From Eubacteriales bacterium (GTDB lineage: Bacteria > Bacillota > Clostridia > Oscillospirales > CAG-272), in the NCBI GenBank assembly GCA_045632465.1, contig JAZQWS010000344.1:1-43443 (forward strand): a stretch of 43,443 nt of DNA, read 5' to 3'. Below the pieces are notes generated by a model. It was not told the DNA's origin. It worked only from the letters and a program-made list of their open reading frames with translations, and ran no database searches. A program made the translations under genes and the position numbers. Position 1 is the first letter of the stretch. Every line of letters starts with the position of its first letter. Positions 3,866-37,319 of this stretch are shown piece by piece.

Positions 3866-3867
3866 TC

Positions 3868-6396: not shown

Positions 6397-6566
6397 AATT
6401 AAAGAATAGGAGAATCGGCGTGAAATAACATTCATCTGTGTTTGGCTTAAGTGTTCACGCCATCAAATTTTCGCGATTTGGAGCCTTCATCCAAATCGAT
6501 GCAAGCATTACCGAAAATTATACTATATTTTGTGTAGTCGCTGTAGGCGACAGAATGGAGAGTGCT

Positions 6567-7784: not shown

Positions 7785-7792
7785 TCAAATAA

Positions 7793-7845
7793 GAAATCCC
7801 GCGGATCGGATTTTTTCTGCCTGCGGGATTTTCTTGTTTTTACTC
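7793..7845 (+). terminator. intrinsic terminator after the WbsX-like gene
   Basis: Stem gaaatcccgc (7793-7802) / gcgggattt(t)c (7823-7833) followed by a T-rich tail, ttcttgttttt. Confidence 0.7.
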
Positions 7846-7868
7846 GTAATAAAACTCGCATTCCCCTC

Positions 7869-7897
7869 TTGATTTTTTTTCGGAAAAGGAGTAAAAT
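7869..7897 (+). promoter_or_regulatory. sigma-A type promoter for the 470-aa membrane protein gene
   Basis: TTGATT (7869-7874), 17-nt spacer, TAAAAT (7892-7897). GGAG/ATG at 7928. Confidence 0.55.
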
Positions 7898-7927
7898 ATA
7901 GAGTACGTCAAAAAAACGGAGTGAAAA

Positions 7928-9340: not shown

Positions 9341-9349
9341 AGCACCGTG

Positions 9350-10270: not shown

Positions 10271-10276
10271 CGGCAA

Positions 10277-11435: not shown

Positions 11436-11537
11436 GTCAAAGAGGCGCTTTTAAGCATAAAAACAGAAAAAATAAAACATTTTTTGAAAAGATAGGTGAA
11501 AAATTCTTTGAAAATCATAAAAATCTTTATAATACTA

Positions 11538-11566
11538 TTTACTTTTCATATATTTCGTGCTATAAT
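11538..11566 (+). promoter_or_regulatory. extended -10 promoter for PFOR
   Basis: TTTACT (11538-11543), 17 nt, TGcTATAAT (TATAAT at 11561-11566). Confidence 0.55.
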
Positions 11567-11642
11567 ATACGTTGGCATATGAAAAATGCCGCGTCTTATA
11601 ATTCTTGATGTATATAAAATTTCATATATGGAGGAAAAACCA

Positions 11643-14600
11643 ATGGTAGAAAGAAAGAAAATTTCTATGGATGGTAACACAGCTGCTGCGCACGTATCGT
11701 ATGCGTTCACGGAAGTTGCCGCCATCTACCCCATCACCCCCTCATCCAACATGGCTGAGGTAACCGACACCTGGTCCGCATCGAACAAGAACATCTTCGG
11801 CGAGCCCGCAAAGAACATTTTCGGCACGAACGTTAAGGTTGTTGAGATGCAGTCCGAGGCAGGCGCCGCAGGTTCCGTTCACGGTTCTCTTGCTGCAGGT
11901 GCTATGACCACCACCTACACTGCTTCCCAGGGTCTGCTTCTTATGATCCCCAACATGTATAAGATCGCGGGCGAGCTGCTTCCTTGCGTTATTCACGTTT
12001 CCGCAAGATGCGTTGCTTCTCACGCGCTGAACATTTTCGGTGACCATTCCGACGTTTATTCCTGCCGCCAGACCGGCTTTGCCATGATGGCAGAGAGCAA
12101 CGGCCAGGAGGTTATGGACCTTGGCGCCGTTTCCCACCTTGCAACCATCAAGGGAAGAGTTCCTTTCCTGAACTTCTTCGATGGCTTCCGCACCTCTCAC
12201 GAGATCACCAAGGTTGCCGCTTGGGACTATAAGGATCTTGCTGATATGGTGGATTGGGATGCTGTTGCCGCTTTCCGCGCAAGATCTCTGAACCCCGAAA
12301 CCGCTCCCATGCTGAGAGGCTCTGCTGAGAACGGCGATATCTTCTTCCAGCACAGAGAGTCCTGCAACCCCTACTACGATGCGCTTCCCGCAATCGTTGA
12401 GGAGTACATGGACAAGGTTAACGCTAAGCTTGGAACAAACTATAAGCTCTTCAACTACTACGGCGCACCCGATGCTGATCGCGTGATCATCGCTATGGGC
12501 TCTGTTTGCGACGTAGCAGAGGAAGTTATCGATTACCTCCTTGCTAAGGGCGAGAAGGTTGGTCTTGTTAAGGTTCGTCTTTACAGACCCTTCGTTGCCG
12601 AGAAGCTTGCTGAGGCAATTCCCGCAACCGCAAAGGTTATCTCTGTTCTTGACAGAACCAAGGAGCCCGGCTCTCTTGGCGAGCCCCTTTACCTTGACGT
12701 TATCGCAGCTCTCAACGAGGTTGGCAGATGCGGCGTGAAGGTTCTTGGCGGACGTTACGGTCTTGGCTCTAAGGACACCACTCCCGCTTCCATCTTCGCG
12801 GTTTACGAGAACATGGCAGGCGAGCAGAAGAACCACTTTACTATCGGTATCGTGGATGATCTCACCGGTCACTCTCTCCCCGAGCAGAAGGCTCCCAACA
12901 CCGCTCCCGTGGATATGATCCAGTGCAAGTTCTGGGGTCTGGGCGGCGACGGTACCGTTGGTGCAAACAAGAACTCCATCAAGATCATCGGTGACCACAC
13001 CGATAAGTTCATCCAGGCATACTTCCAGTATGACTCCAAGAAGACCTCCGGTATCACTATTTCTCACCTTCGTTTCGGTGATAGCCCCATCAAGTCTTCT
13101 TACTATATCAATAAGGCTGACTTCGTTGCTTGCCACAACAACGCATACCTCAACAAGTACGATATGATCTCCGACGTGAAGCCCGGCGGTACCTTCCTTC
13201 TGGACTGCCCCTGGTCTGTAGAGGAGCTTGATAAGCACCTTCCCGCATCGGTTAAGACCTATATCGCAAAGAACGACGTTCAGTTCTACACCATCAACGC
13301 AACCAAGATTGCTATCGACCTTGGTAACGCAAAGGTTAAGAACACCGTTCTTCAGTCCGCATTCTTCTCTCTTGCAGGCATTCTTCCCATCGAGGAAGCA
13401 ATCGGCTACATGAAGAAGGCTGCATACAAGTCCTATATCAAGAAGGGACAGGCTATCGTTGACCTCAACTATGCCGCAATCGACGCAGGTAAGGATGCTC
13501 TTACCAAGGTTGCCGTTCCCGCTGATTGGGCAAATGCAGGTGAGACCGCTCCCGCAGCTAAGGTTGTTGGTAAGAGAGCAGAGCTCATTGACTTCGTAAA
13601 CGACATCGTTGTTCCCGTTGGCAAGATGCAGGGTGACAGCCTTTCCGTTGCAACCTTCGCTAAGTATGCAGACGGTACCTTCCCCCAGGGCTCTGCCGCA
13701 TTCGAGAAGAGAGGCGTTGCCGTTTCCGTTCCTCAGTGGAATCCCGAAACCTGTATCCAGTGTAACAACTGTGCGTTCGTTTGTCCTCATGCCTGCATCC
13801 GTCCCTTCGCTATGACCGAGGCCGAGGCTGCAGCAGCTCCCGAGGTAACTAAGTTCACGAAGGCACCCGTTGCAAAGACCACCTATAAGTTCACGATGGC
13901 TGTTTCTCCCCTTGACTGTATGGGATGCACGCTTTGCGTTAAGGCTTGCCCTGTAACCGCAAACGCTGCTAAGACCGGCAAGGCTCCCGCAATCGAGATG
14001 AAGCCCATCGCTACTCAGCTTGATCAGCAGCCCGCTTATGACTACGCTGTTGCAAAGGTTTCCGAGAAGCCCGAGCTTATCAACGTAACCGTTAAGGGTA
14101 GCCAGTTCAAGCAGCCCCTCCTTGAGTACTCGGGCTCCTGCGCAGGCTGTGCAGAAACCTCTTACGCTCGTCTTATCACCCAGCTCTTCGGTGAGAGAAT
14201 GTATATCTCCAACGCAACCGGTTGTTCCTCCATCTGGGGTGGCTCCGCTCCCGCAACTCCTTACACCGTAAACAAGGAATCCGGCCACGGTGTTGCTTGG
14301 GCAAACTCCCTGTTCGAGGATAACGCAGAGCACGGTCTTGGTATGTATATCGGCCAGAAGGCAATCCGCGATAAGCTGATCGCTATGGTTGAGGAGATGG
14401 CTCAGTCCGAGAAGGCTTCTGCAGAATTCAAGGCTGCTGCCGAGAATTATATCGCAACCAAGAACGACGGTAAGGCAAATGAGGCTGCAACCAAGGCTCT
14501 TGTTGCTGAGCTTGAAAAGGCTGCAGCAGCAGGCTGTCCCGTTGCTCCCAAGATCCTTGCTGAGAAGCAGTACCTCTCCAAGAAGGCCGTTTGGATCTTC

Positions 14601-19248: not shown

Positions 19249-19341
19249 GAGTTTTTTTTACTTTTGTGCGCGCGTGTAATATTTTAGTTAATTTTTCCTA
19301 AAAAAATTAAAAAAGAATAGGAAAGTTATGAAAAAAGTCAA

Positions 19342-19361
19342 TTGACTTTTTCGGTCGTTAT
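19342..19361. promoter_or_regulatory. perfect 20-bp palindrome overlapping the -35 of the MATE-array promoter (candidate operator)
   Basis: AAAAAGTCAATTGACTTTTT is self-complementary. The TTGACT -35 hexamer (19352-19357) lies in its right half. Confidence 0.5.
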
Positions 19362-19379
19362 GCTAAAATAATATTGTAT
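19352..19379 (+). promoter_or_regulatory. sigma-A type promoter for the MATE array operon
   Basis: TTGACT (19352-19357), 16 nt, TGcTAAAAT (TAAAAT at 19374-19379). A second TATAAT sits at 19387-19392. AGGAGG lies before ATG 19409. Confidence 0.6.
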
Positions 19380-19408: not shown

Positions 19409-20782
19409 ATGAAGCTGCTTGCAAGGCGCACGGATCTCGATCTGACGAATGGGCCGATACTCAAAACAATCATTCTTTTTTCGTTCCCTTTAATTTTGGC
19501 CAATTTCGTTTCAATGATGTTTGATGCGATGGATTTGATGGTCCTTTCCTGGTTTGCTGACGGATACGAGGTTGCCTCGGTTGGAACCACCTCCTCGCTG
19601 ACGCATCTGCTTGAGAATCTTGCAACGGGACTTTGCGTTGGCGTGAATATCATTCTTGCCCGCCTTTTAGGTGAGGGCGACCATGCGCGCGCGCAAAAGG
19701 TGATTTCCACCGCCATTATAACGAGCGTTGGTCTCGGTGCCGTTATTGCTGTGATCGGAAGCTTCATTGCCCGCCCCTTCCTTGTTATGACGGATTGCCC
19801 CGCCGAATGCATCGATCATGCAACGATCTATGCCACGTTTTATTTTCTCGGCATGCCGCTTCTCCTTCTTTACCATTATGCCGCGGCGATCATCCGTGTT
19901 GGAGGAGACAGTCAGCGCCCGCTCTATTATATGCTGATCGCCGGCGTTTGCAACCTTGCGCTGAACACGGTTTTTTGCGCCATTCTTTCTCAGAAGGTAG
20001 TGGCGGTTGCTTTGGCAACGGCGCTTTCCAAGGGGCTTGCCGCATTTTTGGCTCTGCGCCATCTTGTGCGCGGAAGCGGAAGATGCCGCTGGGAGATCAA
20101 GCAAACGCGCTTTGATTTTGCTTCCTTCAAAACGATGATTTTATACGGACTTCCCACGGCGATCACCTCCTGCCTTTATCCGATTGCCAATATGCAGATT
20201 GCCGCCGGTATCAATTCCTACGGTGCGGATTTCGTTGCGGGAAGCACCGCGAGCCAGCAGTATGAGAAAATGCTCGGCTCTTACAACGTGGGCCTCGCCG
20301 CCACAGCGCTCACGATGATGGGGCAGAATCTCGGCGCAAAAAAGCCGAAGCGCGTATATCGCGTGTTCTTTGATATTTTGATTCTTGAGCTGTGTCTTGT
20401 GCTGGGAACGGCAACGATCGTGTATTCCTTCGGAGAATCGCTGATCCCTATTTTCGCGGGCAACAATGCCGCCGCGATCGAGGCCGGAATGCTTCGCATG
20501 AGAATTATGCTCTTCTCGTATTGTATTTTGCACACGCCCTTGGGGCCTGCCATTCAGGCCTTCGGCTATCCGACTTTGCAAACGGCGATCAACACGGCCG
20601 GAATTCTTGGCGTGCGAACGCTTTGGATGCAGATCGTGTACGGCCGCCTCGTTCCCCGAACGGCAGAAATGGTATTTATGAGCTTCCCGGTATCCTACAT
20701 ATTCACAACGGCTTGCTATGCAGTCTGCGTGCTGGTGATCCTTCTTCGCTATCGCAAGGGAAAATATAAGAAAAAGATTTAG
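19409..20782 (+). CDS. MATE-family transporter, paralog 2
   Basis: 457 aa. MKLLARRTDLDLTNGPIL, YEVASVG, DCPAEC, IRVGGDSQRPLYYM, GQNLGAKKPKRVY, IQAFGYPTLQT and a C-terminal LLRYRKGKYKKKI. Confidence 0.9.
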   Translation: MKLLARRTDLDLTNGPILKTIILFSFPLILANFVSMMFDAMDLMVLSWFADGYEVASVGTTSSLTHLLENLATGLCVGVNIILARLLGEGDHARAQKVISTAIITSVGLGAVIAVIGSFIARPFLVMTDCPAECIDHATIYATFYFLGMPLLLLYHYAAAIIRVGGDSQRPLYYMLIAGVCNLALNTVFCAILSQKVVAVALATALSKGLAAFLALRHLVRGSGRCRWEIKQTRFDFASFKTMILYGLPTAITSCLYPIANMQIAAGINSYGADFVAGSTASQQYEKMLGSYNVGLAATALTMMGQNLGAKKPKRVYRVFFDILILELCLVLGTATIVYSFGESLIPIFAGNNAAAIEAGMLRMRIMLFSYCILHTPLGPAIQAFGYPTLQTAINTAGILGVRTLWMQIVYGRLVPRTAEMVFMSFPVSYIFTTACYAVCVLVILLRYRKGKYKKKI

Positions 20783-20809
20783 CTTTTGTGCCCAAAGAGG
20801 AGATAAAAA

Positions 20810-22183
20810 ATGAAAATTTTAGCAAAAAGAAAAAATTTGGATATCACAAGCGGGCCGCTCTTTTCCTCCATTGTTGCCTTTGCGATTCCTCTGATTTTAT
20901 CGAATATTTTTTCTGCCTTTTACCATTCTGCGGATATGGCGGTGCTGGCAGCCTTTGCAAAGGGGAATGAGGTTGCCTCGGTTGGCTCAACCACCGCTCT
21001 CACGGCTTTGTTTCTGAACACGGCCATCGGCCTTGGTACAGGTGCAAACATCATCCTTTCCCGTTGCTTCGGAAGCGGGGAAAAGGATCGGGCGCAAACC
21101 GTTATCTCCACCTCGATTCTGACGGGACTCTTCCTTGGCTTGATCCTTGCCGTGGCAGGCGCGATTCTCGTTCCTTATTTCCTTGCATGGACGAATTGCC
21201 CCGCCGATTGCCTTAACGATGCAACGCTCTATGCCGTGGTTTATATTCTCGGCATGCCCTTTTATCTCGTTTATAGCTATGCTGCCGCCGTGATTCGCGT
21301 GTCGGGTGATAGCGAGCATCCGCTGTATTACATGATCGCGGGCGGACTCACCAACGTTGTTTTGAACGTTCTGCTTTGCTTGATTTTGCCCTATAAGGTG
21401 CTTGCGGTTGCGATCGCAACGCTCGTTTCCAATGCGCTGAGCGCGTTTCTTTGTCTGCGCCGCCTTTCTGTCGTGGAGGGCGTGGCGCATTGGGATGTAA
21501 GGAAAACGCGATTTGATTTCCCAACCTTCGGGAAAATGCTGCAGTACGGTTTGCCCGCGGCGCTGACGACCGTGCTTTATCCGATCTGTAATCTGCAGAT
21601 CCAGACGGGCATCAATTCGTACGGTGCATCCGTTATCGCGGGAAATACGGCAAGCTCGCAGTACGAGAGCTTTGTGAACAATGCCTGCGCCGCATTGACG
21701 GCAACGGCACTGCCGTTTATCGGCCAAAACCTCGGCGCCAAGAAGCCCAAGCGCGTGTATCGATCCTTTTTTTATACACAGGCGATAGAGTCTGCGATCG
21801 CGATCGTTTTCCCAATTTTGTTCTTCCTTCTCGGAAAGCGGCTTTTGCCGATCTTTGCGGGGGATGATCCCGCCGCGATCAGCGCAGGACTTGTGCGTAT
21901 GCGATACGTGCTTCTCGCATATCCAATCGCAATGAATGTTTTCGGAACCACCATTCAGGCCTTCGGTTATCCGACGGTGCAGACCTGTATCAACCTTGCG
22001 GGTATTTTCGGGTTCCGAACCCTCTGGATGCAGTTTGTGTACGGAAAGATCCTTCCTGCCACGCTTGAAAATCTTTATATTTGCTTCCCACTCTCTATTG
22101 TTTTGACGCACGCGGTCAACGGAGCGATGGTTGCGGTTCTGCTCCTGCGCTACCGCAAAGGCAAGTATAAGGAAAAGCTTTGA
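20810..22183 (+). CDS. MATE-family transporter, paralog 3
   Basis: 457 aa, 27 nt after paralog 2, with GAGGAG as its SD. Same block structure (NEVASVG, NCPADC, IRVSGDSEHPLYYM, GQNLGAKKPKRVY, LLRYRKGKYKEKL). Confidence 0.9.
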   Translation: MKILAKRKNLDITSGPLFSSIVAFAIPLILSNIFSAFYHSADMAVLAAFAKGNEVASVGSTTALTALFLNTAIGLGTGANIILSRCFGSGEKDRAQTVISTSILTGLFLGLILAVAGAILVPYFLAWTNCPADCLNDATLYAVVYILGMPFYLVYSYAAAVIRVSGDSEHPLYYMIAGGLTNVVLNVLLCLILPYKVLAVAIATLVSNALSAFLCLRRLSVVEGVAHWDVRKTRFDFPTFGKMLQYGLPAALTTVLYPICNLQIQTGINSYGASVIAGNTASSQYESFVNNACAALTATALPFIGQNLGAKKPKRVYRSFFYTQAIESAIAIVFPILFFLLGKRLLPIFAGDDPAAISAGLVRMRYVLLAYPIAMNVFGTTIQAFGYPTVQTCINLAGIFGFRTLWMQFVYGKILPATLENLYICFPLSIVLTHAVNGAMVAVLLLRYRKGKYKEKL

Positions 22184-22214
22184 TTTTTTTCACAATTGAA
22201 GAAAGGATCTTTGT

Positions 22215-23585
22215 ATGCTTCTGAAACGAAAAAAGGATCTTGATTTAACGAACGGGCCGCTTTTTTCTTCCTTGATCGCCTATGCGCTTCCGCTTTTGGC
22301 CTCGAATCTGATCGGAACGCTCTTTGGCGCGATGGATCTGATGGCGCTCTCCTATTTCTCCGTGGGAAACGAGGTTGCCGCGGTTGGTGCCAGCTCGGCG
22401 CTCACCTCTTTGTTTTTGAATTTAGCCTACGGTCTGACCGCGGGCATCACCGTGATCTTAGCGAGAAGCTTCGGCGAAAAGGATAAGGATCGCGTGCAAA
22501 GCGTAATCTCCACGGCGATCATAACTGCCGTGGTTGTCGGTGTGGCATTTGCGGTGATCGGCGCGCTTCTCGTTCCGTCCTTTCTCCGATGGACGAATTG
22601 CCCCGCAGATTGCGTTGCGGATGCAACGCTCTATGCCGTGATCTATATCTTCGGCATGCCGTTTTATCTTCTCTACGGTTATCTTGGCGCGGTGATCCGC
22701 GTTTCGGGTGACAGTGAGCGTCCGCTTTACTATATGCTTGCGGGCGGCGTGACGAATATCGTTCTGAACTTCGTTCTTTGCATCGTTTTGCCTTATAAGG
22801 TGCTTGCGGTTGCGATCGCAACGCTTGCCTCCAACATTCTCGGTGCATTTCTTTGCCTGCGCCGCCTGATAAAAGCGGAGGGGATCGAGCACTGGGACGT
22901 GAAGAAAACGCGCTTTGATCTTTCCGCCTTTGGAAGCATTTTGCGCTATGGCATTCCCGTTGCGCTGACGAACGTTTTGTTTCCCATTGCCAATCTGCAG
23001 ATCCAATCCGCGATCAATGCCTTTGGCTCTTCCGCCGTTGCGGGCAACACGGCTTGTATGCAATTTGAAAATCTGATGAGCTCCTGTGCGATGGCCTTTA
23101 TATCTGCGGCAATGGCCTTTATGGGGCAGAATATCGGCGCGGGGAAGCCAAAACGCGTATTTCGCTCCTTCTTTTATATGCAGGGAATGGCAACGGCGGT
23201 GAGCGTTACCTCGGTGCTCATCATCGCTCTCTTCGGCAAGCATCTTTTGCCGCTCTTTGCCGGAGATGATCCTGCCGCGGTGGCTTTCGGCCTCGTGCGT
23301 GTGCGCGTTGTCGTTCCTGCCTTTATCTTTTCCCTCACGGTGTTTGCAACTACGGTTCAGGCATTCGGTTATCCCATGCTGCAAACTCTGGCGGAGGTGA
23401 TCGGAATCTTTGGCTTGCGAACGGTTTGGCTTCAGCTTATTTACGGAAAGCTCGTTCCGGCAACGCCCGAGATGCTCTATCTTTGCTATCCGATTTCGAT
23501 GGTGACAACTGCGCTCTTCAACGGAAGCATTGCCGCCGCGCTCCTGCTATGCTATCGCAAGGGAAAATATAAGAAAAAACTTTGA
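22215..23585 (+). CDS. MATE-family transporter, paralog 4
   Basis: 456 aa, 31 nt after paralog 3. NEVAAVG, NCPADC, IRVSGDSERPLYYM, GQNIGAGKPKRVF, CYRKGKYKKKL. Confidence 0.9.
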   Translation: MLLKRKKDLDLTNGPLFSSLIAYALPLLASNLIGTLFGAMDLMALSYFSVGNEVAAVGASSALTSLFLNLAYGLTAGITVILARSFGEKDKDRVQSVISTAIITAVVVGVAFAVIGALLVPSFLRWTNCPADCVADATLYAVIYIFGMPFYLLYGYLGAVIRVSGDSERPLYYMLAGGVTNIVLNFVLCIVLPYKVLAVAIATLASNILGAFLCLRRLIKAEGIEHWDVKKTRFDLSAFGSILRYGIPVALTNVLFPIANLQIQSAINAFGSSAVAGNTACMQFENLMSSCAMAFISAAMAFMGQNIGAGKPKRVFRSFFYMQGMATAVSVTSVLIIALFGKHLLPLFAGDDPAAVAFGLVRVRVVVPAFIFSLTVFATTVQAFGYPMLQTLAEVIGIFGLRTVWLQLIYGKLVPATPEMLYLCYPISMVTTALFNGSIAAALLLCYRKGKYKKKL

Positions 23586-23613
23586 TTTTTCGTTTTTATG
23601 AAAGGACCTTTGT

Positions 23614-24978
23614 ATGTTTTTGCAACGAAAAAAAGATCTTGATATAACGGGCGGGCCGCTTCTTAAAACCATCATTCTGTTTGCTTTGCCGATCGTGCTC
23701 TCCAATATGGTGACAACGCTTTTCAATGCCGCGGATATGATGGTGCTTTCCTGGTTTGCGCAAGGTAACGAGATTGCCTCCGTTGGAGCAACGAGCAGCG
23801 TTATTTCTCTTTTCACGCAGTTTGCCATCGGCCTTTGCACGGGCGTGAACATCGTGCTTGCGCGCTTGATCGGTCAGGGGGATGATAGAAACACGCACCG
23901 CGTGCTTTCAACGGCGATCCTCGCCGCCGCCGTTATGGGGCTCTTTCTTGCGATCGTTGGAGGCCTTTTCGGACGTTCGGTTCTTTCTTGGATGAATTGC
24001 CCCGATGAATGCCTTTCGGATGCCTCTTTGTATTTAATTGTTTACTTTTTGGGCGCTCCGTTTCTTCTTTTGAACCAATATGCCTCTGCCATCATCCGCG
24101 TTTCGGGTGATAGCGAACGCCCTCTGTATTATATGTTGATCTCCGGCGCAACGAACGTTGTGCTGAACGCGATTCTTTGTCTGATCCTGCCTCGCAAGGT
24201 GCTTGCGGTTGCGCTGGCCACGCTTGCTTCGCAGGCCGTTGGTGCGTTTTTGTGCCTTCGCCGCCTTGTCATGGCAGAGGGAATTTGCCACTGGGACTTT
24301 AAAGCAACGCGTTTTGATCTTGGTGCGATGAAAAAGATTCTTATGTATGGCTTGCCTTCCGCTTTGACAACGGCGCTCTACCCGATCACCAATCTGCAGG
24401 TGCAGTCTGCGATCAATTCCTTCGGCCCTGCCGCCATCGCGGGAAACACCGCCGCCATTCAGTATGAAACCATCGTCGGCACGGCGGGAGGTGCATTTCA
24501 GACCTCGGCCCTCACCTTCGTCGGCCAAAATCTCGGCGCGAGGAAAAACGAGCGCGTGTACCGTTCCTTCTTTTACTGTCTGTTCTCAGGTCTTACAGTC
24601 ACCGCAACGCTGGCCGTCAGCATTTATATTTTCCGCCAGCCGTTGCTTTCCATTTTCGTTGCGGGGGATGCGGCATCCATCGCGCAGGGCGCGGTGCGCA
24701 TGAAATACGTCATGCTCTTTTACATTTTGACCATCAACCCGATGGCCTCCACCATTCAGGCCTTTGGCCATCCAACGCTGCAAACCAGCATCAACGTCGG
24801 CAGCGTGCTCGGACTGAGAACGCTCTGGATGCAGATTGTGTATCCCTTGAATCCAACGCTGGACGTCTTGTATTTCTGTTACCCGTTGACATACATTGTC
24901 AATGCGGCGATTTACGCGCCGATCGTTGTTGTTCTTTTCCTCCGTCTGCGAAACGGAAAATACAAATATCAAATTTGA
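23614..24978 (+). CDS. MATE-family transporter, paralog 5
   Basis: 454 aa, 28 nt after paralog 4. NEIASVG, NCPDEC, IRVSGDSERPLYYM, GQNLGARKNERVY. Confidence 0.9.
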   Translation: MFLQRKKDLDITGGPLLKTIILFALPIVLSNMVTTLFNAADMMVLSWFAQGNEIASVGATSSVISLFTQFAIGLCTGVNIVLARLIGQGDDRNTHRVLSTAILAAAVMGLFLAIVGGLFGRSVLSWMNCPDECLSDASLYLIVYFLGAPFLLLNQYASAIIRVSGDSERPLYYMLISGATNVVLNAILCLILPRKVLAVALATLASQAVGAFLCLRRLVMAEGICHWDFKATRFDLGAMKKILMYGLPSALTTALYPITNLQVQSAINSFGPAAIAGNTAAIQYETIVGTAGGAFQTSALTFVGQNLGARKNERVYRSFFYCLFSGLTVTATLAVSIYIFRQPLLSIFVAGDAASIAQGAVRMKYVMLFYILTINPMASTIQAFGHPTLQTSINVGSVLGLRTLWMQIVYPLNPTLDVLYFCYPLTYIVNAAIYAPIVVVLFLRLRNGKYKYQI

Positions 24979-25000
24979 GAAAAAGAAAAGGATTTGCAAA

Positions 25001-26395
25001 ATGACAGCTGTTAAAACTACCGATCCCTTGTGCGGCAAGCCGAAAAGAGATCCGATTACCGAAGGCCCGCTGTTTTCCTCAATCCTCCTCTTCGTGATCC
25101 CCATCGTTCTCGCAAACGTGATGCAAACGCTTTTTAACGCCGTGGATATGGCGATGGTGAATTTCTTCTCGGTGGGCAACGAGGTTGCTTCCATCGGAAG
25201 CACAGGGCCGATTTTGCATCTTTTCAGAAATCTTTCTATCGGAATATCGGTCGGCACAAGTGTTCTGCTGGCGCGCTATCTGGGGGCGAAGGATGAGGAA
25301 AAGACGAAAAAAACCGTTTCTTCCTCGATTCTCGCCGCGCTTCTGATCGGTGTTTTGATTGCCGCCTTCAGCATTCCTTTGATGAAAACGCTTCTTACGA
25401 GGATGAACTGTCCGCCCGAGTGCTTTGAGGAGGCGTGGCTCTATGCCGTTGTAAGCATGGCGGGTATGCCCGCGATCCTTCTCTATAACTACTGCTCTGC
25501 CATCCTGCGTGTTTCGGGAGACAGCAAGCGTCCGCTCTATTATATGCTTTGTTCGGGCGGTATCAACGTAGTTCTGAATCTTGTTTTTTGCATTCTCTTT
25601 GCTTCTAAAATTTTGGCCGTTGCGCTTGCAACGGTGCTCTCGCAGGCCATTGGCGCGGCACTCTCGCTTTTTCGCCTTTGCCGAGTGGAGGGATCTTGCC
25701 GTGTTTCGCTGAAAACCCTTCGCATGGATTTTCGCTATTTCTTTAAAATTCTGCGCTATGGACTTCCGAACGGAATTTGCCTCGCTCTCTTTGCGTTCTC
25801 CAATATCCTGATTTATTCGGCTTTGAATGAGTTCGGTGCAGCCACCGTTGCAGGTGAAAGCGCCGCCGCACAGCTGCAGGAGGTCAGTCTTGCCGTCAAT
25901 TCGGCTTTCCAGGTGGCCACGCAGACGTTTATTGGTCAGAATCTCGGCGCGGGAAATCCAAAGCGCGTGAAAAAGAGCTTCCTCTATTGCGGTGTTATGC
26001 TGTTTGCGATCACCTTCTCGCTGGGACTCTTTATGAATATATTTGCCGAGCAGCTGCTGTATCCTTTTGTAGGCACGAATCCGGAATCCATTTATTGCGG
26101 CAAGCTTTCGACCTTTTATCTCGCGTTCTTTTTCTTCCTGTATTCAACGCCGCTTCCTGCAACGATTCAAGCCTTTGGCTATCCAACGCTCCAGATGTCG
26201 GTCAACTTGACGGGCGTGCTGGGCTTCCGAACCGTTTGGATGACTTTTGTATACGGCAAGCTTTTGCCCAAGGCTTTGACCTCGATTTATTTTTGTTATC
26301 CCATCTCCTATGCGTTGCTGGATGCCGTTTATATTCCGATCGTGATCGTTCTTTTTGTAAAATATAAGAAAGGGCGCTTGAAAAAGGAGCTCTGA
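25001..26395 (+). CDS. MATE-family transporter, paralog 6 (most divergent)
   Basis: 464 aa from ATG 25001 (MTAVKTTDPLCGKPKRDPITEGPLFSS). The track ORF start at 24896 overlaps paralog 5 and is rejected. NEVASIG, NCPPEC, LRVSGDSKRPLYYM, GQNLGAGNPKRVK, KYKKGRLKKEL. Confidence 0.88.
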   Translation: MTAVKTTDPLCGKPKRDPITEGPLFSSILLFVIPIVLANVMQTLFNAVDMAMVNFFSVGNEVASIGSTGPILHLFRNLSIGISVGTSVLLARYLGAKDEEKTKKTVSSSILAALLIGVLIAAFSIPLMKTLLTRMNCPPECFEEAWLYAVVSMAGMPAILLYNYCSAILRVSGDSKRPLYYMLCSGGINVVLNLVFCILFASKILAVALATVLSQAIGAALSLFRLCRVEGSCRVSLKTLRMDFRYFFKILRYGLPNGICLALFAFSNILIYSALNEFGAATVAGESAAAQLQEVSLAVNSAFQVATQTFIGQNLGAGNPKRVKKSFLYCGVMLFAITFSLGLFMNIFAEQLLYPFVGTNPESIYCGKLSTFYLAFFFFLYSTPLPATIQAFGYPTLQMSVNLTGVLGFRTVWMTFVYGKLLPKALTSIYFCYPISYALLDAVYIPIVIVLFVKYKKGRLKKEL

Positions 26396-26408: not shown

Positions 26409-27167
26409 ATGATTCATTCCATTCTTGTTATCGGTCAGTCCAATGCGGGCGGCCGCGGCTTTGCCTCTGAGGTTGAACCGATAGAAAATGCAGATGAGAG
26501 CATCAAGGTGCTTCGCAACGGGCGCTGGATTCCGATGTATACTCCCGTCAATCCTGACAGAAGAACCTCGGGCGTGAATCTTGTGGAGAGCTTTGCGGCT
26601 CGTTATCGCGAGGAAAAGGGCGTGCAGGTTGGCATTATCCCCTGCGCAGACGGCGGCACCTGCCTGGATCAATGGGCGGTTGGCGGTCTTCTTTTTGACC
26701 ACGCCTGCTATATGGCGGAGCTTGCAAGCCGCACCTCCACGATCGCGGCCGTTCTTTGGCATCAAGGCGAGAGCGATACCAGAGAGGATCGCGCCCCGCT
26801 TTACGAAGAAAAGGTGATGAAAATTTTCGATGCCTTCAGAAAACGCCTGAACCTTTACGACGTTCCGTTTATCGTTGGCGGCCTCGGCGATTTTGTTTAT
26901 AATTTTTATCCGCCTGAACGCCATGATCATATCAAAATGGTAAACAATGCTTTGCAAAATCTTCCGAATAAGTATAAAATGATAGGTTTTGCATCCGCCG
27001 AGGGATTAACCTCTAATCCCGACAATTTGCATTTTTCCGCACCTGCTTTGCGCGAATTCGGCCTCCGCTATTACGAGGTGTTCAAAGCGCTTGAGGATAA
27101 AAACAAGGTCTTTGAGGAGAAGCCGGACGAGCTCGGCGCTATCCGCAACGAGATCGAATATTTGTAA
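26409..27167 (+). CDS. SGNH/DUF303-type carbohydrate esterase (sialate O-acetylesterase-like), short form, no signal peptide
   Basis: MIHSILVIGQSNAGGRG (GQSN block) and WHQGESD. Starts 13 nt after MATE-6 with GGAG as its SD. Confidence 0.75.
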   Translation: MIHSILVIGQSNAGGRGFASEVEPIENADESIKVLRNGRWIPMYTPVNPDRRTSGVNLVESFAARYREEKGVQVGIIPCADGGTCLDQWAVGGLLFDHACYMAELASRTSTIAAVLWHQGESDTREDRAPLYEEKVMKIFDAFRKRLNLYDVPFIVGGLGDFVYNFYPPERHDHIKMVNNALQNLPNKYKMIGFASAEGLTSNPDNLHFSAPALREFGLRYYEVFKALEDKNKVFEEKPDELGAIRNEIEYL

Positions 27168-27180: not shown

Positions 27181-28374
27181 ATGCAGTTTCATACCGAACC
27201 GAAAACCGTGGCCGAGGCTGCCGTTCTCGCAAGATGCCGCCGGCTGACAGAGTTTGTGTGGACGCCGGTGCGCGAGCTTCCGACCTACACACGCGATAAG
27301 GGAAGCTTCACGCTTCCTGCGGGCGTTCCCATCAAGGGGTTCCCGTATTCCTCCACCGAGAAAACCGACCAATTTATAACCGAAAATATTGCGATCCGTT
27401 CTTTTCTCTCCGCGATCGATAACCCCGACAGCAAGCTGTATCAGCCGGGGCAGGGGCAGTTTTATGCCTGCAATTTCGGCATTGTTTGTAACGGGCTTGC
27501 ACGCTATGCCTTGGGCATTCCGTATCGCGTGAGCACCGCAAGATGGGAAACCATCCCGGGGATGCGCCGCGTGGCGGACAGAGGGTGCTATAAGGCGGAG
27601 GATATCCGTCTGCTCGACGTTCTGTATGCCTTTGGCGAGGGCAGAAATCACGTGGCGATGATCACGGATATCGTTAAGGACGAAAAAGGAAATATCCTCT
27701 CGATCGAGGTTTCGGATGCGATCCGCCCCTCCTGCGCAAGGAGGAGCTTCACGCCCGAGGCATTCTTTGAAAAATGGGCGCTTTTCCATTTGGATCGCTA
27801 TGATTATTTGGAGAGTGTTCCGCTTTTGGATGCGGAAACCGATGCGCTTTTGGATAACTTCCGTCAGAGTGAAAAGCCTCCGCGCATCGCGGTGGATAAC
27901 GGTGATTTTTCCAATTATCGCCTCGGCGAGGATGTTTTGCTTTCCACCTTTTTGGAAGGGGCAGACGAAGTGGAGCTGATCTCGGAGGGCGCGGTTTTGG
28001 AAACCTACAAGGTGTTTGGCCACGCGATGATCACCCTTGCGCCAAAGCGCGGATATTACGAGCTCCGCCTGAAAAGCACGGGCGAGTGTGTGCATTTTGC
28101 CGTTGTCGGCGCGAAAACGAGCTATGAAGCAGAGGATGGCCTTATCACCGTCACCGCAGACCCCTGTGATAAAAAAAGCGAGATCCATTATATGGATTTC
28201 CGCATTTCCGGAGAAAGTCCCAGCGCCCTTGCAAAATACGAGGTGCTGACGGAGGAGGAAAAGGCGCGCGGCGTGATCACGCGCAAGATTCCATCGGACG
28301 CGGGCAGCTTCAAGGTGTACTACAGAAACACTTACGGGATCTGGACGCATCCGCTGACACCCATCGAAAAATAA
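27181..28374 (+). CDS. hypothetical protein (397 aa), last gene of the MATE operon
   Basis: GAGGAG SD then ATG 27181, 13 nt after the esterase stop. Ordinary amino-acid composition. I cannot name a family. Possible Cys/His pair (FGIVCNGLARYAL ... GRNHVAMITDIV). The track start at 27091 overlaps the esterase gene and is rejected. Confidence 0.6.
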   Translation: MQFHTEPKTVAEAAVLARCRRLTEFVWTPVRELPTYTRDKGSFTLPAGVPIKGFPYSSTEKTDQFITENIAIRSFLSAIDNPDSKLYQPGQGQFYACNFGIVCNGLARYALGIPYRVSTARWETIPGMRRVADRGCYKAEDIRLLDVLYAFGEGRNHVAMITDIVKDEKGNILSIEVSDAIRPSCARRSFTPEAFFEKWALFHLDRYDYLESVPLLDAETDALLDNFRQSEKPPRIAVDNGDFSNYRLGEDVLLSTFLEGADEVELISEGAVLETYKVFGHAMITLAPKRGYYELRLKSTGECVHFAVVGAKTSYEAEDGLITVTADPCDKKSEIHYMDFRISGESPSALAKYEVLTEEEKARGVITRKIPSDAGSFKVYYRNTYGIWTHPLTPIEK

Positions 28375-28379: not shown

Positions 28380-28424
28380 AAACGGTTGCTAAATACCTTT
28401 CGGTGAAGAGCAACCGTTTTTTTG
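28380..28424. terminator. bidirectional intrinsic terminator between the two convergent operons
   Basis: A-run, then stem acggttgct (28383-28391) / agcaaccgt (28410-28418), then TTTTTT (28419-28424). Confidence 0.8.
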
Positions 28425-28437: not shown

Positions 28438-30420
28438 TTAGTTTTTGATTTGAATTTTTGCAATCATAACATTGCTCTCGTAGCGATCGAAAATCTCGGG
28501 TATAACACGCTCCACCGGCTTTTTTGCAGGAATCACGAACCTGTAGTATCTACCGTCATCCATGTCCTCAAAATCGCAGGTGAAGATGGTTTCACGACAA
28601 TAGCCGAGATCTGCGGGACGACCGTCATCCTCAAAGGAAGTAACCTTTCCTTCCTCCTGAGCAGAATGCATCGGGCCGACATTTTCGCCCCAGAGGATCT
28701 CCACGCGCTCGTCGCTTCCGTCCTTGTAATAAATATGGTAATAACCAAGGCGGAACATATCATCGCTCGGGAATTCGCCGCAACCGTAATATCCGTGCTT
28801 GATCACAAGATTCGAGGTGTGCAGAATATCCACGTGCGAGCCACTGAGCACATCGCGGAAGCGATAATCGAAGGCAGAGGCGGCAGTCATAGCAAGCTCA
28901 AGGCCACGCTTCGTATCATCATATTCTCTGCTCCAAGCCATACGGGAGGCATATACCACGGAATCAAGGCGCATACCTCTTTGCATCTGCTTAAAGTCCG
29001 ATGCGCCCCAGCTGGAAACGCAAAAGCCCTTTGCGCCCATAGTGACTCTGGCATTCCACTGATCAAAGAGGATGCCGCTGAAGTTTCCGTACACCATCGG
29101 AAGCCCGTGAAGATGATAATCACGGTCGCCCTGCGGATAATACGACCAGTACCAGTTCATACAGATGATGTCCTTCGGGATCATACCGATGGCGGGATAG
29201 GTTTCCTCTTGCGTGCTACGAATTCTATCCGGAGGAAGGAGCGCAGTTTGCATAGGGGAAATAACATCTATTCCCTTCACCGCATATTCTTTGCCTTTGA
29301 AAGTAACCTTTTTGTCCGTTTCCTTAAACACGATCGTTTTATATGCACCACCCGCAGGCTGCCAGAACTTATTATAGCTATTGAGAAGCTTTTCCGACCA
29401 CATCATCGTACGGATGCCACGCTCCGCGAGATAGCCGTGGATCTTTTTGATATCATCGGCAAAAAGATCTGCGCCACGCTTACCCTTGCAACGAGGGCAA
29501 ACGCCGTATACGTAATATTCATCGTGGCCGATATGAAGCACCTTCGGCTCAAACACCTCGATCACCTCATCAAACACATCGAAAAGGATCTCATAGGACT
29601 TAGGATTCGAGGGACAATAGGTATCGGGCGCGGGATCATCGGGAGATTCGGCGATATCCTTTCTGCCTGCGATCAGATAATCCGCGTGAGAGAGGCAGGG
29701 CACCTCGGGGATTGGCTCAAGACCGCGCGCACGCGCATAGGCACAAATTTCCTTGACGGTTTTCTGAGAAAGGAATTTTCCGCCACCGTTTTCGATATGG
29801 ATCGAGTTTTTGCACCAATACTGCGTGAACATAAAATCCTTGGTTTTTCCGCTGTATTCAAAGAACTCCTTGCAATAATCCACCCAGAAATCATTGATCT
29901 CGGGATGCTTTTTGTATTCCATTGCACCTCCGATCTCAAGAACCAGAGCATTATAGCCGTAATGCATAAACATATCGAGCATATAATAGAATTCATCCAG
30001 TTTTTCCTCTGCGGGCAGATACATTTTTACGGCGCGGAATTCTACGAGCGGCTCGTTGTAAATATAACCCGTGCCGATCCCCTCTCTGTAGTGGGAGAAG
30101 AGCGTGCAAGCACCGTAGAGATGGCCGCGAGGATTGCTTGCATAAACGGTGATATATTCTGCCGTTATCTCTAAAAGATAGGCATCCTCTTTTTTCTCAA
30201 GGACTTCACCGAAGACAGAAATGACCTTTTTCTTTTCGTTTTCGCCAAACGAAAGAAAGCGAATGGCTTTGACAGAATTGCTTTTCTTTCCCGTGAGAAG
30301 AGAAGCCAGCGTTTTTTGAATCACGGAATTTTCGGTTTCCAAAACCGTGTCGGCATCCAAAAACACGGCCTCTGCAGAGAGCTTCACATAGGAATCTTTG
30401 AAATTTTGGTTAAAACTCAT
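28438..30420 (-). CDS. GH20-like glycoside hydrolase (beta-N-acetylhexosaminidase-like TIM barrel), no signal peptide
   Basis: 660 aa. FRAVKMYLP...GYNALVLEIGGAMEY and LHIGHDEYY resemble the GH20 catalytic-domain blocks (H-x-G-x-DE). Family assigned by eye only. Confidence 0.45.
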   Translation of the reverse strand: MSFNQNFKDSYVKLSAEAVFLDADTVLETENSVIQKTLASLLTGKKSNSVKAIRFLSFGENEKKKVISVFGEVLEKKEDAYLLEITAEYITVYASNPRGHLYGACTLFSHYREGIGTGYIYNEPLVEFRAVKMYLPAEEKLDEFYYMLDMFMHYGYNALVLEIGGAMEYKKHPEINDFWVDYCKEFFEYSGKTKDFMFTQYWCKNSIHIENGGGKFLSQKTVKEICAYARARGLEPIPEVPCLSHADYLIAGRKDIAESPDDPAPDTYCPSNPKSYEILFDVFDEVIEVFEPKVLHIGHDEYYVYGVCPRCKGKRGADLFADDIKKIHGYLAERGIRTMMWSEKLLNSYNKFWQPAGGAYKTIVFKETDKKVTFKGKEYAVKGIDVISPMQTALLPPDRIRSTQEETYPAIGMIPKDIICMNWYWSYYPQGDRDYHLHGLPMVYGNFSGILFDQWNARVTMGAKGFCVSSWGASDFKQMQRGMRLDSVVYASRMAWSREYDDTKRGLELAMTAASAFDYRFRDVLSGSHVDILHTSNLVIKHGYYGCGEFPSDDMFRLGYYHIYYKDGSDERVEILWGENVGPMHSAQEEGKVTSFEDDGRPADLGYCRETIFTCDFEDMDDGRYYRFVIPAKKPVERVIPEIFDRYESNVMIAKIQIKN

Positions 30421-30460: not shown

Positions 30461-31564
30461 TTATGCCTCTTCGATCTCGGAGAGCATCACCTTTTTGATC
30501 ACCGTTGCAGACAAAGGGAAGCCTGTTCCGTAGGAATGAAAATAGGAGCAGAGGAAGTAGTCTTTTCCCTCGAATACGGCGGAATAGCAATAGACTTCCT
30601 TGGGGTCATCCTCAAGGAGAAAGACCTTTGCCTTCGAGCTGAAGAAGAAGGGGCCAAGAAATTCCGTTCCCTTTCCGTTTGCGACGGCAAGAGCGAGCGG
30701 AGAACGCTCGCCGCAGCTCATAAAGGAATAATCGTTCAGAGGCGTTGGGGGAAGCGGATTCCAAACAGCAACCGTTCTTCCGTTCGTAATATGGCGCATA
30801 TGCATGGGGGAGCAGGGCGAGGTGAAAAACGGAGAAGGCTCGGGCGTTGAAAAGCTCTCGCCGCCGTCCTCAGATATGCAGATGAACTGCGAGCCGGCGT
30901 AGGTGCGCGAGTAGGCAAGTACCTTGCCGTCCTCAATTTCGAGAACGCCGGTTTCCTGCAGGCCTGCGGGATCGTTTTTTAATGGATTTTCCACGTGGCA
31001 GGATTTTTTAAAGCTTTTGCCGTCGTCGTCGGAATAATAAAGTTCAAAGCTGCCGCGAAGGCGCGGATTTCCGTCTTCATCGTAGGGATGCGCGTTTGTG
31101 GGGAGCAGAATACGTCCGGACGAAAGGCGGATCACGCGGGCGTTATTATTCACAGAGTATTTTGCGTCCGGTGTGCAATCGATCGGCTCGGAGAAATGTT
31201 CTCCATCCTTCGTTCTCGTCAGCATCGTATGCAGGCAGATCCTTCCGTCCTTTCCTAAGAATTTTTCTCCGTAGAACAAACCGATCTCGCCGTTTTGCAT
31301 CGGGAGAAAAGAGCTGAACATACGGTTAATGACGTTATCGGGTGTGGGAATCAATACACGGTAATCGCCGAAGCTTTCGCCCTCGTCCGAAGAAAAGATT
31401 GCGCTGATGCGCGCGGGCGAATGGTCGTGAGTGTTACTCGTATAGTGATCCGAGTAGGCGAACATAATTCTGCCGTCCGGCAGGCGAATAAAGTCGCCGC
31501 CGCCGTTTCGCGCGTTTTGCTTGGTGGGAACAATTGCATGCACCCGCCTTCCGATGATTTTCAT
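30461..31564 (-). CDS. BNR/Asp-box beta-propeller, sialidase (GH33)-family protein, paralog A1; no signal peptide
   Basis: Asp-boxes SSDEGESF, SDDDGKSF and SEDGGESF, plus an N-terminal IRLPDGRI (FRIP-like Arg motif). Alignable along its full length with 33892-35013. Confidence 0.75.
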   Translation of the reverse strand: MKIIGRRVHAIVPTKQNARNGGGDFIRLPDGRIMFAYSDHYTSNTHDHSPARISAIFSSDEGESFGDYRVLIPTPDNVINRMFSSFLPMQNGEIGLFYGEKFLGKDGRICLHTMLTRTKDGEHFSEPIDCTPDAKYSVNNNARVIRLSSGRILLPTNAHPYDEDGNPRLRGSFELYYSDDDGKSFKKSCHVENPLKNDPAGLQETGVLEIEDGKVLAYSRTYAGSQFICISEDGGESFSTPEPSPFFTSPCSPMHMRHITNGRTVAVWNPLPPTPLNDYSFMSCGERSPLALAVANGKGTEFLGPFFFSSKAKVFLLEDDPKEVYCYSAVFEGKDYFLCSYFHSYGTGFPLSATVIKKVMLSEIEEA

Positions 31565-31731: not shown

Positions 31732-32688
31732 TTAGTGCTCCATAATGAAGTCGATGGCTTTTTCAAGATTCAAGGCCTTGAAGGAAAGCCCGGTCACCTC
31801 ATCGGTGTATTCTTTTCCCGTGAGCTTGAAGATTGCCATAGCGGCCTCCGGCATGGTTGAGCCGTAATTTTGCCAAGGAAAAGCGGATTTTTCAACGGCC
31901 TCGCGCCAGAGCATGAAGGAGGCGGCGGCATAGGCGTTGGAGGAGGAGGTGAAATCGGCATGCACCAAAAGGTCGGTGTTGCTGAAACGGTCGTTATAAA
32001 CCTTTTCGTCCTTCACCGAGCCGATGGCATAGCAATTTTCCTGGCAGGCGGGCCAGGAGATGCCGTCCGTGTGTTGCAGATTTCCGCAGGGCGCGCTCAC
32101 CCAGATGTTCATTCTTCTCAAGCGCGCAAGCGAGGCGTCCAGCACGGTGGGGCAGGGCTCTGTGTGCGGAACGTCATCCAATGCCGAAAGATTCACGGCG
32201 GTGATATTGTATTTTTCCGCATTCTCTGCAACCCAATCCAAGGCTTTGGCAAGCGTTATGTCCTCGCCCTCGATTTTCGGCAAATGCACGATTGTGCAGG
32301 AGCGAATGTGCGCAACCCGATTGCGATATGCAATGCCGCAAAGCCCGTTGTAGCATAGAGAGGAAGGGTAGCCAACGGTTGTTCCGTGGTATCCGGGAGG
32401 TACGTGCGAGGGATCGTCATTTTCCTCATAAACGTTCCAAGAGGCGATCACCTTTTTGCCCCATGGATGCACCGTTTGCCATTCCGGCACGGTGAGGTTG
32501 CATCCATCGTCCGCGATTGCCAGGGTTTGCCCTTCGCCAAAGGAAAGGATGCCGTCGTATTTTTCCCAAACGCGGGTTGCGCCGATGGATTCGAAATGTG
32601 CTTTGTTATAAGGGGTACGTGCATTGTCGGCGGCATGCTCGGCCGCATCGATTTCGAGCCCCTTTTCGATTCCGCTTAAGCTGCGCAT
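31732..32688 (-). CDS. S8 (subtilisin-like) serine peptidase family protein, no signal peptide
   Basis: ESIGATRVWEKY...GEGQTLAIADDGCN (Asp region), GYHGTTVGY (His region), WVSAPCGN (oxyanion Asn region) and FTSSSNAYAAASF (degenerate GTSxA Ser region). Confidence 0.6.
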   Translation of the reverse strand: MRSLSGIEKGLEIDAAEHAADNARTPYNKAHFESIGATRVWEKYDGILSFGEGQTLAIADDGCNLTVPEWQTVHPWGKKVIASWNVYEENDDPSHVPPGYHGTTVGYPSSLCYNGLCGIAYRNRVAHIRSCTIVHLPKIEGEDITLAKALDWVAENAEKYNITAVNLSALDDVPHTEPCPTVLDASLARLRRMNIWVSAPCGNLQHTDGISWPACQENCYAIGSVKDEKVYNDRFSNTDLLVHADFTSSSNAYAAASFMLWREAVEKSAFPWQNYGSTMPEAAMAIFKLTGKEYTDEVTGLSFKALNLEKAIDFIMEH

Positions 32689-37285: not shown

Positions 37286-37319
37286 GGTAGTCCTCATTTC
37301 GGTATTTTTTTATAATACT

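Follow-up and report, generated by a model that had tools for sequence, protein, structure and literature searches.

A conserved tandem array of MATE-family transporter genes co-encoded with predicted cytoplasmic hydrolases in uncultured Clostridia

The window analysed here comprises 43,443 nucleotides (positions 1 to 43,443) of contig JAZQWS010000344.1 (assembly GCA_045632465.1) of an Eubacteriales bacterium assigned to the CAG-272 lineage of the Oscillospirales. It encodes six transporters of the MATE family, five of which (M1–M5) are arranged head to tail on the forward strand at positions 19409-26395, with the sixth (M0) located at 2492-3865. The array forms a single operon of about 9 kb with the genes of a SASA-family carbohydrate esterase and of a 397-amino-acid (aa) protein, transcribed from a single promoter to a shared terminator. 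It is vertically inherited in related species, each paralog class being under purifying selection, and the linkage of this MATE clade to glycan-type enzymes predicted to be cytoplasmic recurs in three locus types within the lineage. The paralogs are tentatively read, at a probability of roughly 0.4, as sub-specialised cation-coupled exporters that would be coupled to the pathway of the co-encoded cytoplasmic deacylating and glycosidase-like enzymes, a reading for which we infer both the direction of transport and the substrates.

All six open reading frames contain two MatE stretches each (Pfam PF01554, E-values from 9e-32 to 1e-38). The array comprises M1 (19409-20782, 457 aa, E 3.7e-35), M2 (20810-22183, 457 aa, E 9.4e-32), M3 (22215-23585, 456 aa, E 2.5e-33), M4 (23614-24978, 454 aa, E 1.4e-38) and M5 (25001-26395, 464 aa, E 8.5e-38), and M0 (E 3.7e-34) is likewise encoded on the forward strand. 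With Pfam scores of 110-133 bits against a cut-off of 24.9, the copies belong to the family, which bears out the initial annotation of five consecutive same-strand MATE genes of 454-464 aa and one further copy. Only M5 (165.1 bits) exceeds the cut-off of the NCBIfam model TIGR00797 (147.4 bits), M1–M4 and M0 scoring 118-145 bits, and none of the NCBIfam equivalog models, including those of MepA, NorM-type proteins, DinF, YeeO and SolL, comes near its own cut-off for any of the six copies. The mechanical list of open reading frames starts M5 at a TTG codon (24896); the ATG at 25001 is preferred, since it has its own Shine-Dalgarno sequence (AAAGGA) and the orthologs are 464 aa long. A crude hydropathy scan gave 8-12 hydrophobic stretches per copy, and residues 9-441 of a six-copy profile align to residues 8-439 of PfMATE, consistent with a two-lobe protein of twelve transmembrane (TM) helices. 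In an exact-sequence look-up the M0 protein was absent from the record.

Pairwise, the six copies share 39-59% protein identity and 58-67% DNA identity. M2 and M3 are a sister pair (59% protein identity), and M5 is the most diverged copy (39-45% to the others). DNA identities of this order mark old paralogy, as proposed initially, and are incompatible with a collapsed or duplicated assembly repeat. The shared motif blocks listed in the initial annotation are all present in the alignment of the copies; the blocks R-x-x-G-D-S-x-x-P and GQN-x-GA align with loops of PfMATE in the HMMER alignment and are therefore not specific to these paralogs.

The array genes are separated by 27, 31, 28 and 22 nt, with a Shine-Dalgarno-like GGAG or AAGGA in each gap, and gaps of only 13 nt separate M5 from the esterase gene and the latter from the gene of the 397-aa protein (ATG at 27181). 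A consensus scan revealed the sigma-70-type promoter at 19342-19369 on the forward strand (TTGACT-16-TAAAAT with an extended -10 TG), whose -35 and extended -10 elements are kept in nine related genomes, including one that carries a single MATE gene. The block just 5' of the -35 element (GAAAGTTATGAAAAAAGTCAA) and the element TTCCTAAAAA are also kept in most of these nine genomes (19282-19341 and orthologous regions), and the two could represent an UP element or the site of a regulator. The bidirectional terminator (28380-28424), which serves both the array operon and the one convergent on it, was read directly from the sequence: it consists of a hairpin at 28380-28419 (AAACGGTTGC ... GCAACCGTTT) with a 10-bp stem and flanking A and T runs, the T run extending to 28424, and it escaped the consensus scan because its loop is 20 nt long. 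Promoter- and terminator-like matches inside the operon occur at the level expected from shuffled sequence. The spacing, the individual ribosome-binding sites, the single promoter region and the terminator described initially are thus confirmed, as is the presence of the genes of an SGNH esterase and of a protein without a known family in the same operon. The gene upstream of the array encodes an HD-domain protein, and the regulators nearby are of the AraC type; no gene of a MarR-, TetR- or MerR-type regulator adjoins the array or M0. No AraC-type operator common to the M1 promoter region and the regions upstream of the PnuC-like and AraC genes of the convergent operon was found, only -10-like strings being common to them.

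The conservation of the array was followed by searching one genome per GTDB species and by looking up the genomic context of further loci. The GTDB scan revealed the same locus in four species-level metagenome-assembled genomes (MAGs), labelled Eubacteriales or Clostridia bacterium and in some cases obtained from the rectum of water deer, where NaPi and HD genes are followed by arrays of three, four, four and five MATE genes, the SASA gene and the gene of the 397-aa protein. At least eight independent assemblies from different hosts (L001-L004, L013, L014, L018 and L097) carry an array, with three copies in L013 and four in L014. The genomes with an array include GCA_054289005.1 and GCA_045636085.1. 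In the closest relative, L097 (NaPi 97% identical), M1, M2, M3 and M4 follow each other in the order of the window, with 83, 90, 85 and 75% protein identity, up to the end of the contig. One MATE gene of L018 (2370-3730) is called as two open reading frames of 173 and 280 aa, which points to a pseudogene or to a frameshift error. The shortest version of the locus was found in L098 (Logan SRR27608121, 1-10907), where a single MATE gene, an ortholog of M1 at 85% identity, lies between the same flanks: the HD gene on one side and the PnuC-like, AraC, methyltransferase, Metallophos and Met-gamma-lyase genes on the other. Since the SASA esterase, the 397-aa protein, the BNR_2 proteins, the 512-aa protein and the GH20 enzyme of the window locus are all missing there, M1 is the anchor gene, and the rest either an accreted block or a block deleted in L098.

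Because tandem paralogs in metagenome-assembled sequence can in principle be mis-assembled, an artefact has to be considered. A mis-joined or inflated repeat array is, however, effectively ruled out by the low DNA identity of the copies, by the M1-M2-M3-M4 order in the independent sample L097 at 75-90% protein identity and by arrays of three to five copies in at least eight assemblies from different hosts, so that the chance of such an artefact is negligible.

In a neighbour-joining tree, 41 copies fall into orthogroups that are spread across species, so the duplications predate the split of these species. M1, whose orthologs share 78-90% identity, is present in every related locus; M1, M4 and M5 are found in every genome with an array and constitute its core, M5 always being last. 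The variable classes are M2 (orthologs in L001, L002, L004 and L097), M3 (only in L018 and L097), an M0-like type and a fourth type. Ancient tandem duplications that started from one M1-type gene gave rise to the array, and the copy number is now one, three, four or five. The ratio of nonsynonymous to synonymous substitution rates (dN/dS) of ortholog pairs is 0.06-0.24 at dS of 0.4-1.4; M1 is the most constrained (0.064-0.082, three orthologs), followed by M5 (0.09-0.12), M4 (0.12), M2 (0.12-0.17) and M3 (0.23). The alignment contains 85 columns common to all classes, and 23 columns are constant within each of M1, M2, M4 and M5 yet different among them, a pattern that fits retained and differentiated functions.

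The SASA/SGNH esterase (26409-27167, forward strand; 252 aa; Pfam SASA (DUF303), E 1.5e-43) is a predicted cytoplasmic carbohydrate O-acetylesterase. Its GQSN serine (Ser11) and the D205-x-x-H208 motif are invariant among eight orthologs, and the enzyme is probably active. The 397-aa protein (27181-28374, forward strand) matches no Pfam or NCBIfam family, and searches of the PDB with its sequence and profile gave nothing; it has 325 homologs, none of them functionally named, those with a name being called ‘hypothetical protein’. An AlphaFold2 model built on a 41-sequence alignment (predicted local distance difference test, pLDDT, 94) consists of an alpha/beta N-terminal domain and two immunoglobulin (Ig)-like beta-sandwich domains. 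A fold search with the full-length model returned only Ig-like matches, and the N-terminal domain alone (pLDDT 93) gave weak matches (E 0.06-0.14) to the papain-like IdeS/Mac-1 and to the CHAP domain of PlyC. Residues C103 and H157 are invariant, and the N-terminal domain is plausibly, if on weak evidence, that of a Cys-His hydrolase, which may act as an amidase, peptidase or deacylase. Elsewhere members of this family adjoin M20 peptidases and PGA_cap proteins, and one homolog (P0155) is fused to a metallo-beta-lactamase domain.

The operon convergent on the array is encoded on the reverse strand and contains, in the order of transcription, genes for an AraC-family regulator, a PnuC-like transporter, a 512-aa protein, two BNR_2 proteins, a weakly subtilase-like protein (31732-32688), a third BNR_2 protein and a GH20-like hexosaminidase. 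The last gene (28438-30420) codes for a protein of 660 aa without a signal sequence (Pfam Glyco_hydro_20, E 4.9e-16). The three BNR_2 genes (30461-31564, 32719-33843 and 33892-35013) encode sialidase-like beta-propellers (Pfam BNR_2, E 4e-15 to 8e-17), the best PDB matches of which are GH33 sialidases, with alignments of about 70 residues and an E-value of only 1e-4. The convergent sialidase-like operon of the initial annotation is confirmed, with three BNR_2 genes and the GH20 gene, but with a fold-level Pfam assignment and weak, partial PDB matches the name ‘sialidase’ is a lead only. As substrates, sialoglycans and glycans of other nonulosonates come into question, as do hexosamine glycoconjugates and even acetylated muropeptides. 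The number of BNR_2 copies in relatives varies from one to four, and the L018 locus carries four in tandem.

The 512-aa protein (35028-36566) represents a large family with at least 1514 homologs in Clostridia, Victivallales and Paenibacillus, none of which is functionally named, and it has no Pfam or NCBIfam match. Its profile gave only sub-threshold matches in the PDB, to a GH130 phosphorylase and a GH32 hydrolase (E 0.2-0.3), so that it is possibly a five-bladed propeller glycosidase or phosphorylase. The PnuC-like transporter (36593-37297; Pfam NMN_transporter, E 4e-11) and the AraC-family regulator at the head of the operon (37394-38275; HTH_18/AraC_binding) are both kept in L013, L014 and L098. 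The PnuC family is known for the uptake of vitamins and nucleosides, and the position of a member near the head of a glycosidase-like operon is unusual; no riboswitch was found upstream of the gene, the Rfam matches in the window being limited to one tRNA.

Synteny of the array, the SASA gene and the gene of the 397-aa protein, convergent on the BNR_2, 512-aa, PnuC-like and AraC genes, is kept in related species, so that the combination of MATE array, DUF303 esterase and BNR genes sought in relatives on the suggestion of the initial annotation was indeed found there. In every array of three or more copies the SASA gene and the gene of the 397-aa protein lie downstream, and wherever the contig is long enough the array faces BNR_2 genes and the gene of the 512-aa protein. 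The second locus type is the M0 operon (1079-3915, forward strand), which comprises a promoter (1079-1107, TTGACA-17-TACAAT), a GH39-like gene (1127-2455; Pfam Glyco_hydro_39, E 2.3e-17), M0 and a terminator with a perfect 16-bp hairpin (3869-3915). The third was found on another contig (L017) of the L002 genome, where a MATE of 476 aa from the same clade is encoded in the middle of a 10-gene hydrolase operon with PGA_cap, GDSL, RpiB and an unnamed gene before it and an unnamed gene, GDSL, GH20 and a further unnamed gene after it, the spacers in the MATE half being 12-44 nt. This MATE, the sole transporter of the operon, is flanked by paralogs of the 512-aa protein (37 and 33% identity; 8499-9956 and 11453-12940). 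Members of one MATE clade thus accompany the same enzyme families in two arrangements that are not homologous. None of the enzyme-like proteins of these loci has an N-terminal hydrophobic segment, and they are accordingly predicted to be cytoplasmic. No sugar importer of the ABC, PTS or MFS type is encoded in the window or among the genes called around L013, L014, L017 and L018. At four of eight loci of relatives with 38-43% identity (L008, L010, L011 and L012; about 11.4-13.2 kb) a GH63/MGH1-like cytoplasmic hydrolase, of 509-513 aa where seen, is encoded convergently to the MATE gene, with GFO/IDH/MocA oxidoreductase and AraC genes nearby; since these genes are convergent and not co-transcribed, they are only suggestive of a linkage in the wider clade.

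The six-copy profile matches the solved structures of PfMATE (E 1e-33), DinF-BH (1e-25), ClbM (2e-16), VcmN (6e-14), HvAACT1 (7e-14) and NorM-NG (6.5e-6), and by overall similarity the array proteins belong to the DinF/PfMATE branch. The residues connected with coupling were checked in an alignment to PfMATE of 41 clade members, 32 close and nine distant. The TM1 aspartate (D41 in PfMATE, D40 in DinF-BH, D42 in M1) is invariant in all 32 close and all nine distant members, and PfMATE N180 is kept in the clade. The second signature aspartate of DinF proteins, D184 of PfMATE in the TM5 motif N-I/V-x-L-D, is replaced by asparagine (N186) in 41 of 41 members. E163 of the intracellular loop 4-5, part of the proton switch, is serine or glycine in the clade, and Y37 of TM1 is mostly phenylalanine (27 of the 32 close members), otherwise tyrosine. 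D41 and D184 are the signature residues of DinF proteins, and all 15 MATEs of Clostridioides difficile keep both (PMC11170357). Y37, D41, D184 and E163 have been tied to proton coupling in PfMATE, although a glutamate at position 163 is found in only 45% of homologs (bioRxiv 10.1101/773572). The clade thus keeps one of four PfMATE coupling residues, D41, and coupling may follow a different chemistry than in PfMATE. All close members carry a Cys-Pro-x-x-Cys motif before TM4, the second cysteine of which is present in only five of the nine distant members.

If the paralogs are pathway-coupled exporters, acylated glycosides or glycoconjugates would enter the cell via importers encoded elsewhere and would be broken down in the cytoplasm by the esterase, the putative Cys hydrolase, the BNR_2 and 512-aa propeller proteins and the GH20 enzyme. 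The MATE paralogs would then expel related fragments, leftover or toxic and not metabolised by the cell, such as aglycone or acyl-type products. We assume export since, to our knowledge, every characterised MATE is an exporter; the TM1 aspartate is also retained, and the embedding in operons argues for a tie to the enzymes.

A number of observations weigh against this reading. A catabolic operon with an exporter as its sole transporter is unusual. The near-consensus promoter and the lack of an operator in common with the AraC-headed operon suggest constitutive expression rather than induction by sugars. The initial annotation had named alignment with the reference MATE clades as a check, and this placed the copies in the DinF/PfMATE branch, the home of ordinary multidrug pumps. 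Outside the lineage, the gene of a 44%-identical relative stands alone among housekeeping genes, with AddAB on one side and RbfA/TIM/PGK on the other, and relatives with 38-43% identity are monocistronic. In L098, M1 persists without any of the enzymes. A scan of SASA orthologs gave 75 loci, with the array only in the four of this lineage; the orthologs in 71 other Clostridia species (45-69% identity) have no clade MATE, which rules out a MATE linkage travelling with the esterase. Their neighbours are heterogeneous, AraC regulators being the commonest, and in six of the 71 species an unrelated, weakly similar MATE (19-34% identity) lies within 9 kb. The SASA gene and the gene of the 397-aa protein are adjacent in five other Clostridia species with no membrane protein beside them. 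Genes resembling those of carbohydrate-active enzymes (CAZymes) make up about nine of the roughly 33 genes of the window, and at a density of about a quarter chance adjacency is not negligible. Finally, in the MAG RGIG8981 (L003, JAGBCA010000058.1, 8236-9946) a PutP-type Na+/proline symporter (TIGR02121, 523.7 bits against a cut-off of 515.5) is encoded on the same strand between M4-type and M5-type genes, so that the operon looks like a mixed set of transporters. The proposal of glycan-linked, sub-functionalised transport in place of drug efflux is therefore sustained only in part: old, constrained paralog classes and synteny within the lineage speak for it, whereas linkage beyond the lineage and membership of the DinF branch do not.

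Several of these points favour the possibility that the array is a generic efflux battery of multidrug or toxin exporters acting against bile salts, plant phenolics or antimicrobials. The esterase and the Cys hydrolase would then be detoxifying enzymes or mere passengers, and the glycan-type neighbours would reflect the CAZyme density of the genome. Such pumps would be at home in the DinF/PfMATE branch and in gut Clostridia, which are rich in MATE paralogs (15 in C. difficile 630; PMC11170357), and they would suit a strong, constitutive-looking promoter that is the same in the one-MATE L098, the survival of M1 alone in that genome, the singleton relatives with no linkage outside the lineage and the PutP gene inside an array. 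However, no regulator of the types mentioned above adjoins the array or M0, the clade is embedded with hydrolases in three locus types, multi-copy arrays co-vary with the presence of the enzyme genes, and D184, E163 and mostly Y37 of the four PfMATE coupling residues are replaced. Generic efflux is considered somewhat less probable than pathway-coupled export. The direction of transport might also be the opposite, the paralogs serving as importers or facilitators of acylated glycosides or oligosaccharides, with uptake either by symport or by facilitated diffusion in which the cytoplasmic hydrolases trap the substrate. They would then take over the importer role that is otherwise vacant in these loci. 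Because the enzymes of all three locus types are without signal sequences, their substrates must enter the cell, and the absence of ABC, PTS and MFS sugar importers from the window and from the surroundings of the four related loci, the MATE as the sole transporter of the L017 operon and the PnuC-like facilitator in the partner operon are in line with import; the replacement of Y37 (mostly), E163 and D184 by F, S/G and N, respectively, may leave room for altered coupling. Against import, we know of no MATE or MOP member that has ever been shown to act in this direction, the TM1 aspartate characteristic of antiporters is still present, the genes of importers can lie elsewhere in the genome, the canonical importer seen in one array (PutP in L003) serves an unrelated substrate, and in L098 M1 is found with none of the enzymes. 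MATE, MOP and PnuC proteins go unmentioned in a 2026 review of bacterial glycoside transporters (PMC13543919). Import is regarded as improbable.

A role as flippases of lipid-linked glycans, analogous to the Wzx- and MurJ-like functions of the MOP superfamily and serving the assembly or remodelling of cell-surface glycans, is disfavoured and appears highly improbable. MATE proteins share this superfamily with Wzx and MurJ, one PfMATE entry (6fhz) was deposited as a ‘putative MOP flippase’, and a GT4 gene (MraY/WecA-type) is present in the window (9350-10276). However, the copies have no MurJ/MVIN or Polysacc_synt match at E <= 0.001 in Pfam and match only MATE models in NCBIfam, they are surrounded by genes of hydrolases and esterases that have no signal peptides, and not by those of glycosyltransferases or polymerases, and the GT4 gene, which adjoins housekeeping genes on the opposite strand, is at a distance of 9 kb.

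The closest full-length structural matches, PfMATE of Pyrococcus furiosus (PDB 3vvn) and DinF-BH (4lz6), are H+-coupled exporters with the same two-lobe MatE architecture, TM1 aspartate (D41) and N180. The array clade differs from PfMATE in D184 (Asn), E163 (Ser or Gly) and Y37 (mostly Phe), and from both proteins in its Cys-Pro-x-x-Cys motif before TM4 and in the location of its genes in hydrolase operons instead of stand-alone. A precedent for a MATE exporter dedicated to the product of the surrounding pathway is ClbM of the colibactin island. ClbM (PDB 4z3n) is detectably homologous to the array copies (E 2e-16); however, it is encoded by a single gene in a biosynthetic island and exports a defined precursor, whereas the array consists of five paralogs in a catabolic-looking, hydrolase-rich context. 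Another representative of Clostridia with many DinF-type paralogs is C. difficile 630, the 15 MATEs of which include CdeA, are all of the DinF type, are in many cases induced by antibiotics and are thought to derive from duplications (PMC11170357). Its paralogs are dispersed, keep both signature aspartates and are discussed as antibiotic-responsive pumps, whereas the five array copies lie head to tail with enzymes and have lost the second signature aspartate. The clustering of SASA, GH20, BNR_2 and GH39-like genes with AraC regulators and transporters resembles Gram-positive polysaccharide-utilisation loci, but MATE and PnuC-like proteins take the place of ABC, PTS or MFS importers, and all of the enzymes are predicted to be cytoplasmic. 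The combination of the size and conservation of the array, hydrolase operons that lack canonical importers and encode predicted cytoplasmic enzymes, and the clade-wide loss of a DinF signature aspartate is unusual. No relevant literature was found on MATE arrays, on MATE genes in sialidase, esterase or glycoside hydrolase clusters or on import by MATE proteins.

Other features of the window include a third glycan-type cluster at 5305-9340, located beside an AraC gene (4347-5207, reverse strand). It encodes a SASA-like esterase with a GQSN motif (probable start at 5305), a WbsX-like protein (6438-7784) and a DUF1576 membrane protein with 14 TM helices (7928-9340), possibly a transporter. Between M0 and this AraC gene, a gap of 481 nt contains two copies of a 38-nt repeat (3907-3944 and 4079-4116, 76% identical) with the palindrome TTTTGCGCA...GCGCAAAA, upstream of a tRNA-Thr(GGT) gene (4164-4239, reverse strand) that has a hairpin at 4129-4164. 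Beyond the convergent operon, positions 38306-39817 of the reverse strand encode a 503-aa protein resembling N6-adenine methyltransferases (weak matches to Eco57I, N6_Mtase and MTS), with no adjoining restriction gene. The methyltransferase-like gene is syntenic in L013, L014, L022, L023 and L098 (84-90% identity).

Almost without exception, MATE proteins are regarded as pumps for drugs and toxins. The loci described here reveal a MATE clade that has multiplied within operons of predicted cytoplasmic esterases and glycosidase-like enzymes in uncultured Clostridia of human and ruminant guts. The series of one, three, four and five copies in related genomes represents a natural system for following how the specificity of transporters splits after duplication. 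If only generic efflux is involved, the array would be an unusually large but ordinary set of paralogs. Should the paralogs turn out to be importers, they would be the first of the MATE/MOP superfamily and would represent a new class of glycoside transporters in gut Firmicutes. If instead they are coupled to the pathways of their neighbours, these pumps would mark a little-noticed step of glycoconjugate breakdown, the disposal or possibly the uptake of fragments, and would provide a handle on three large families without functional names, namely, the putative Cys-His hydrolases of 397 aa, the propeller-like proteins of 512 aa and DUF1576.

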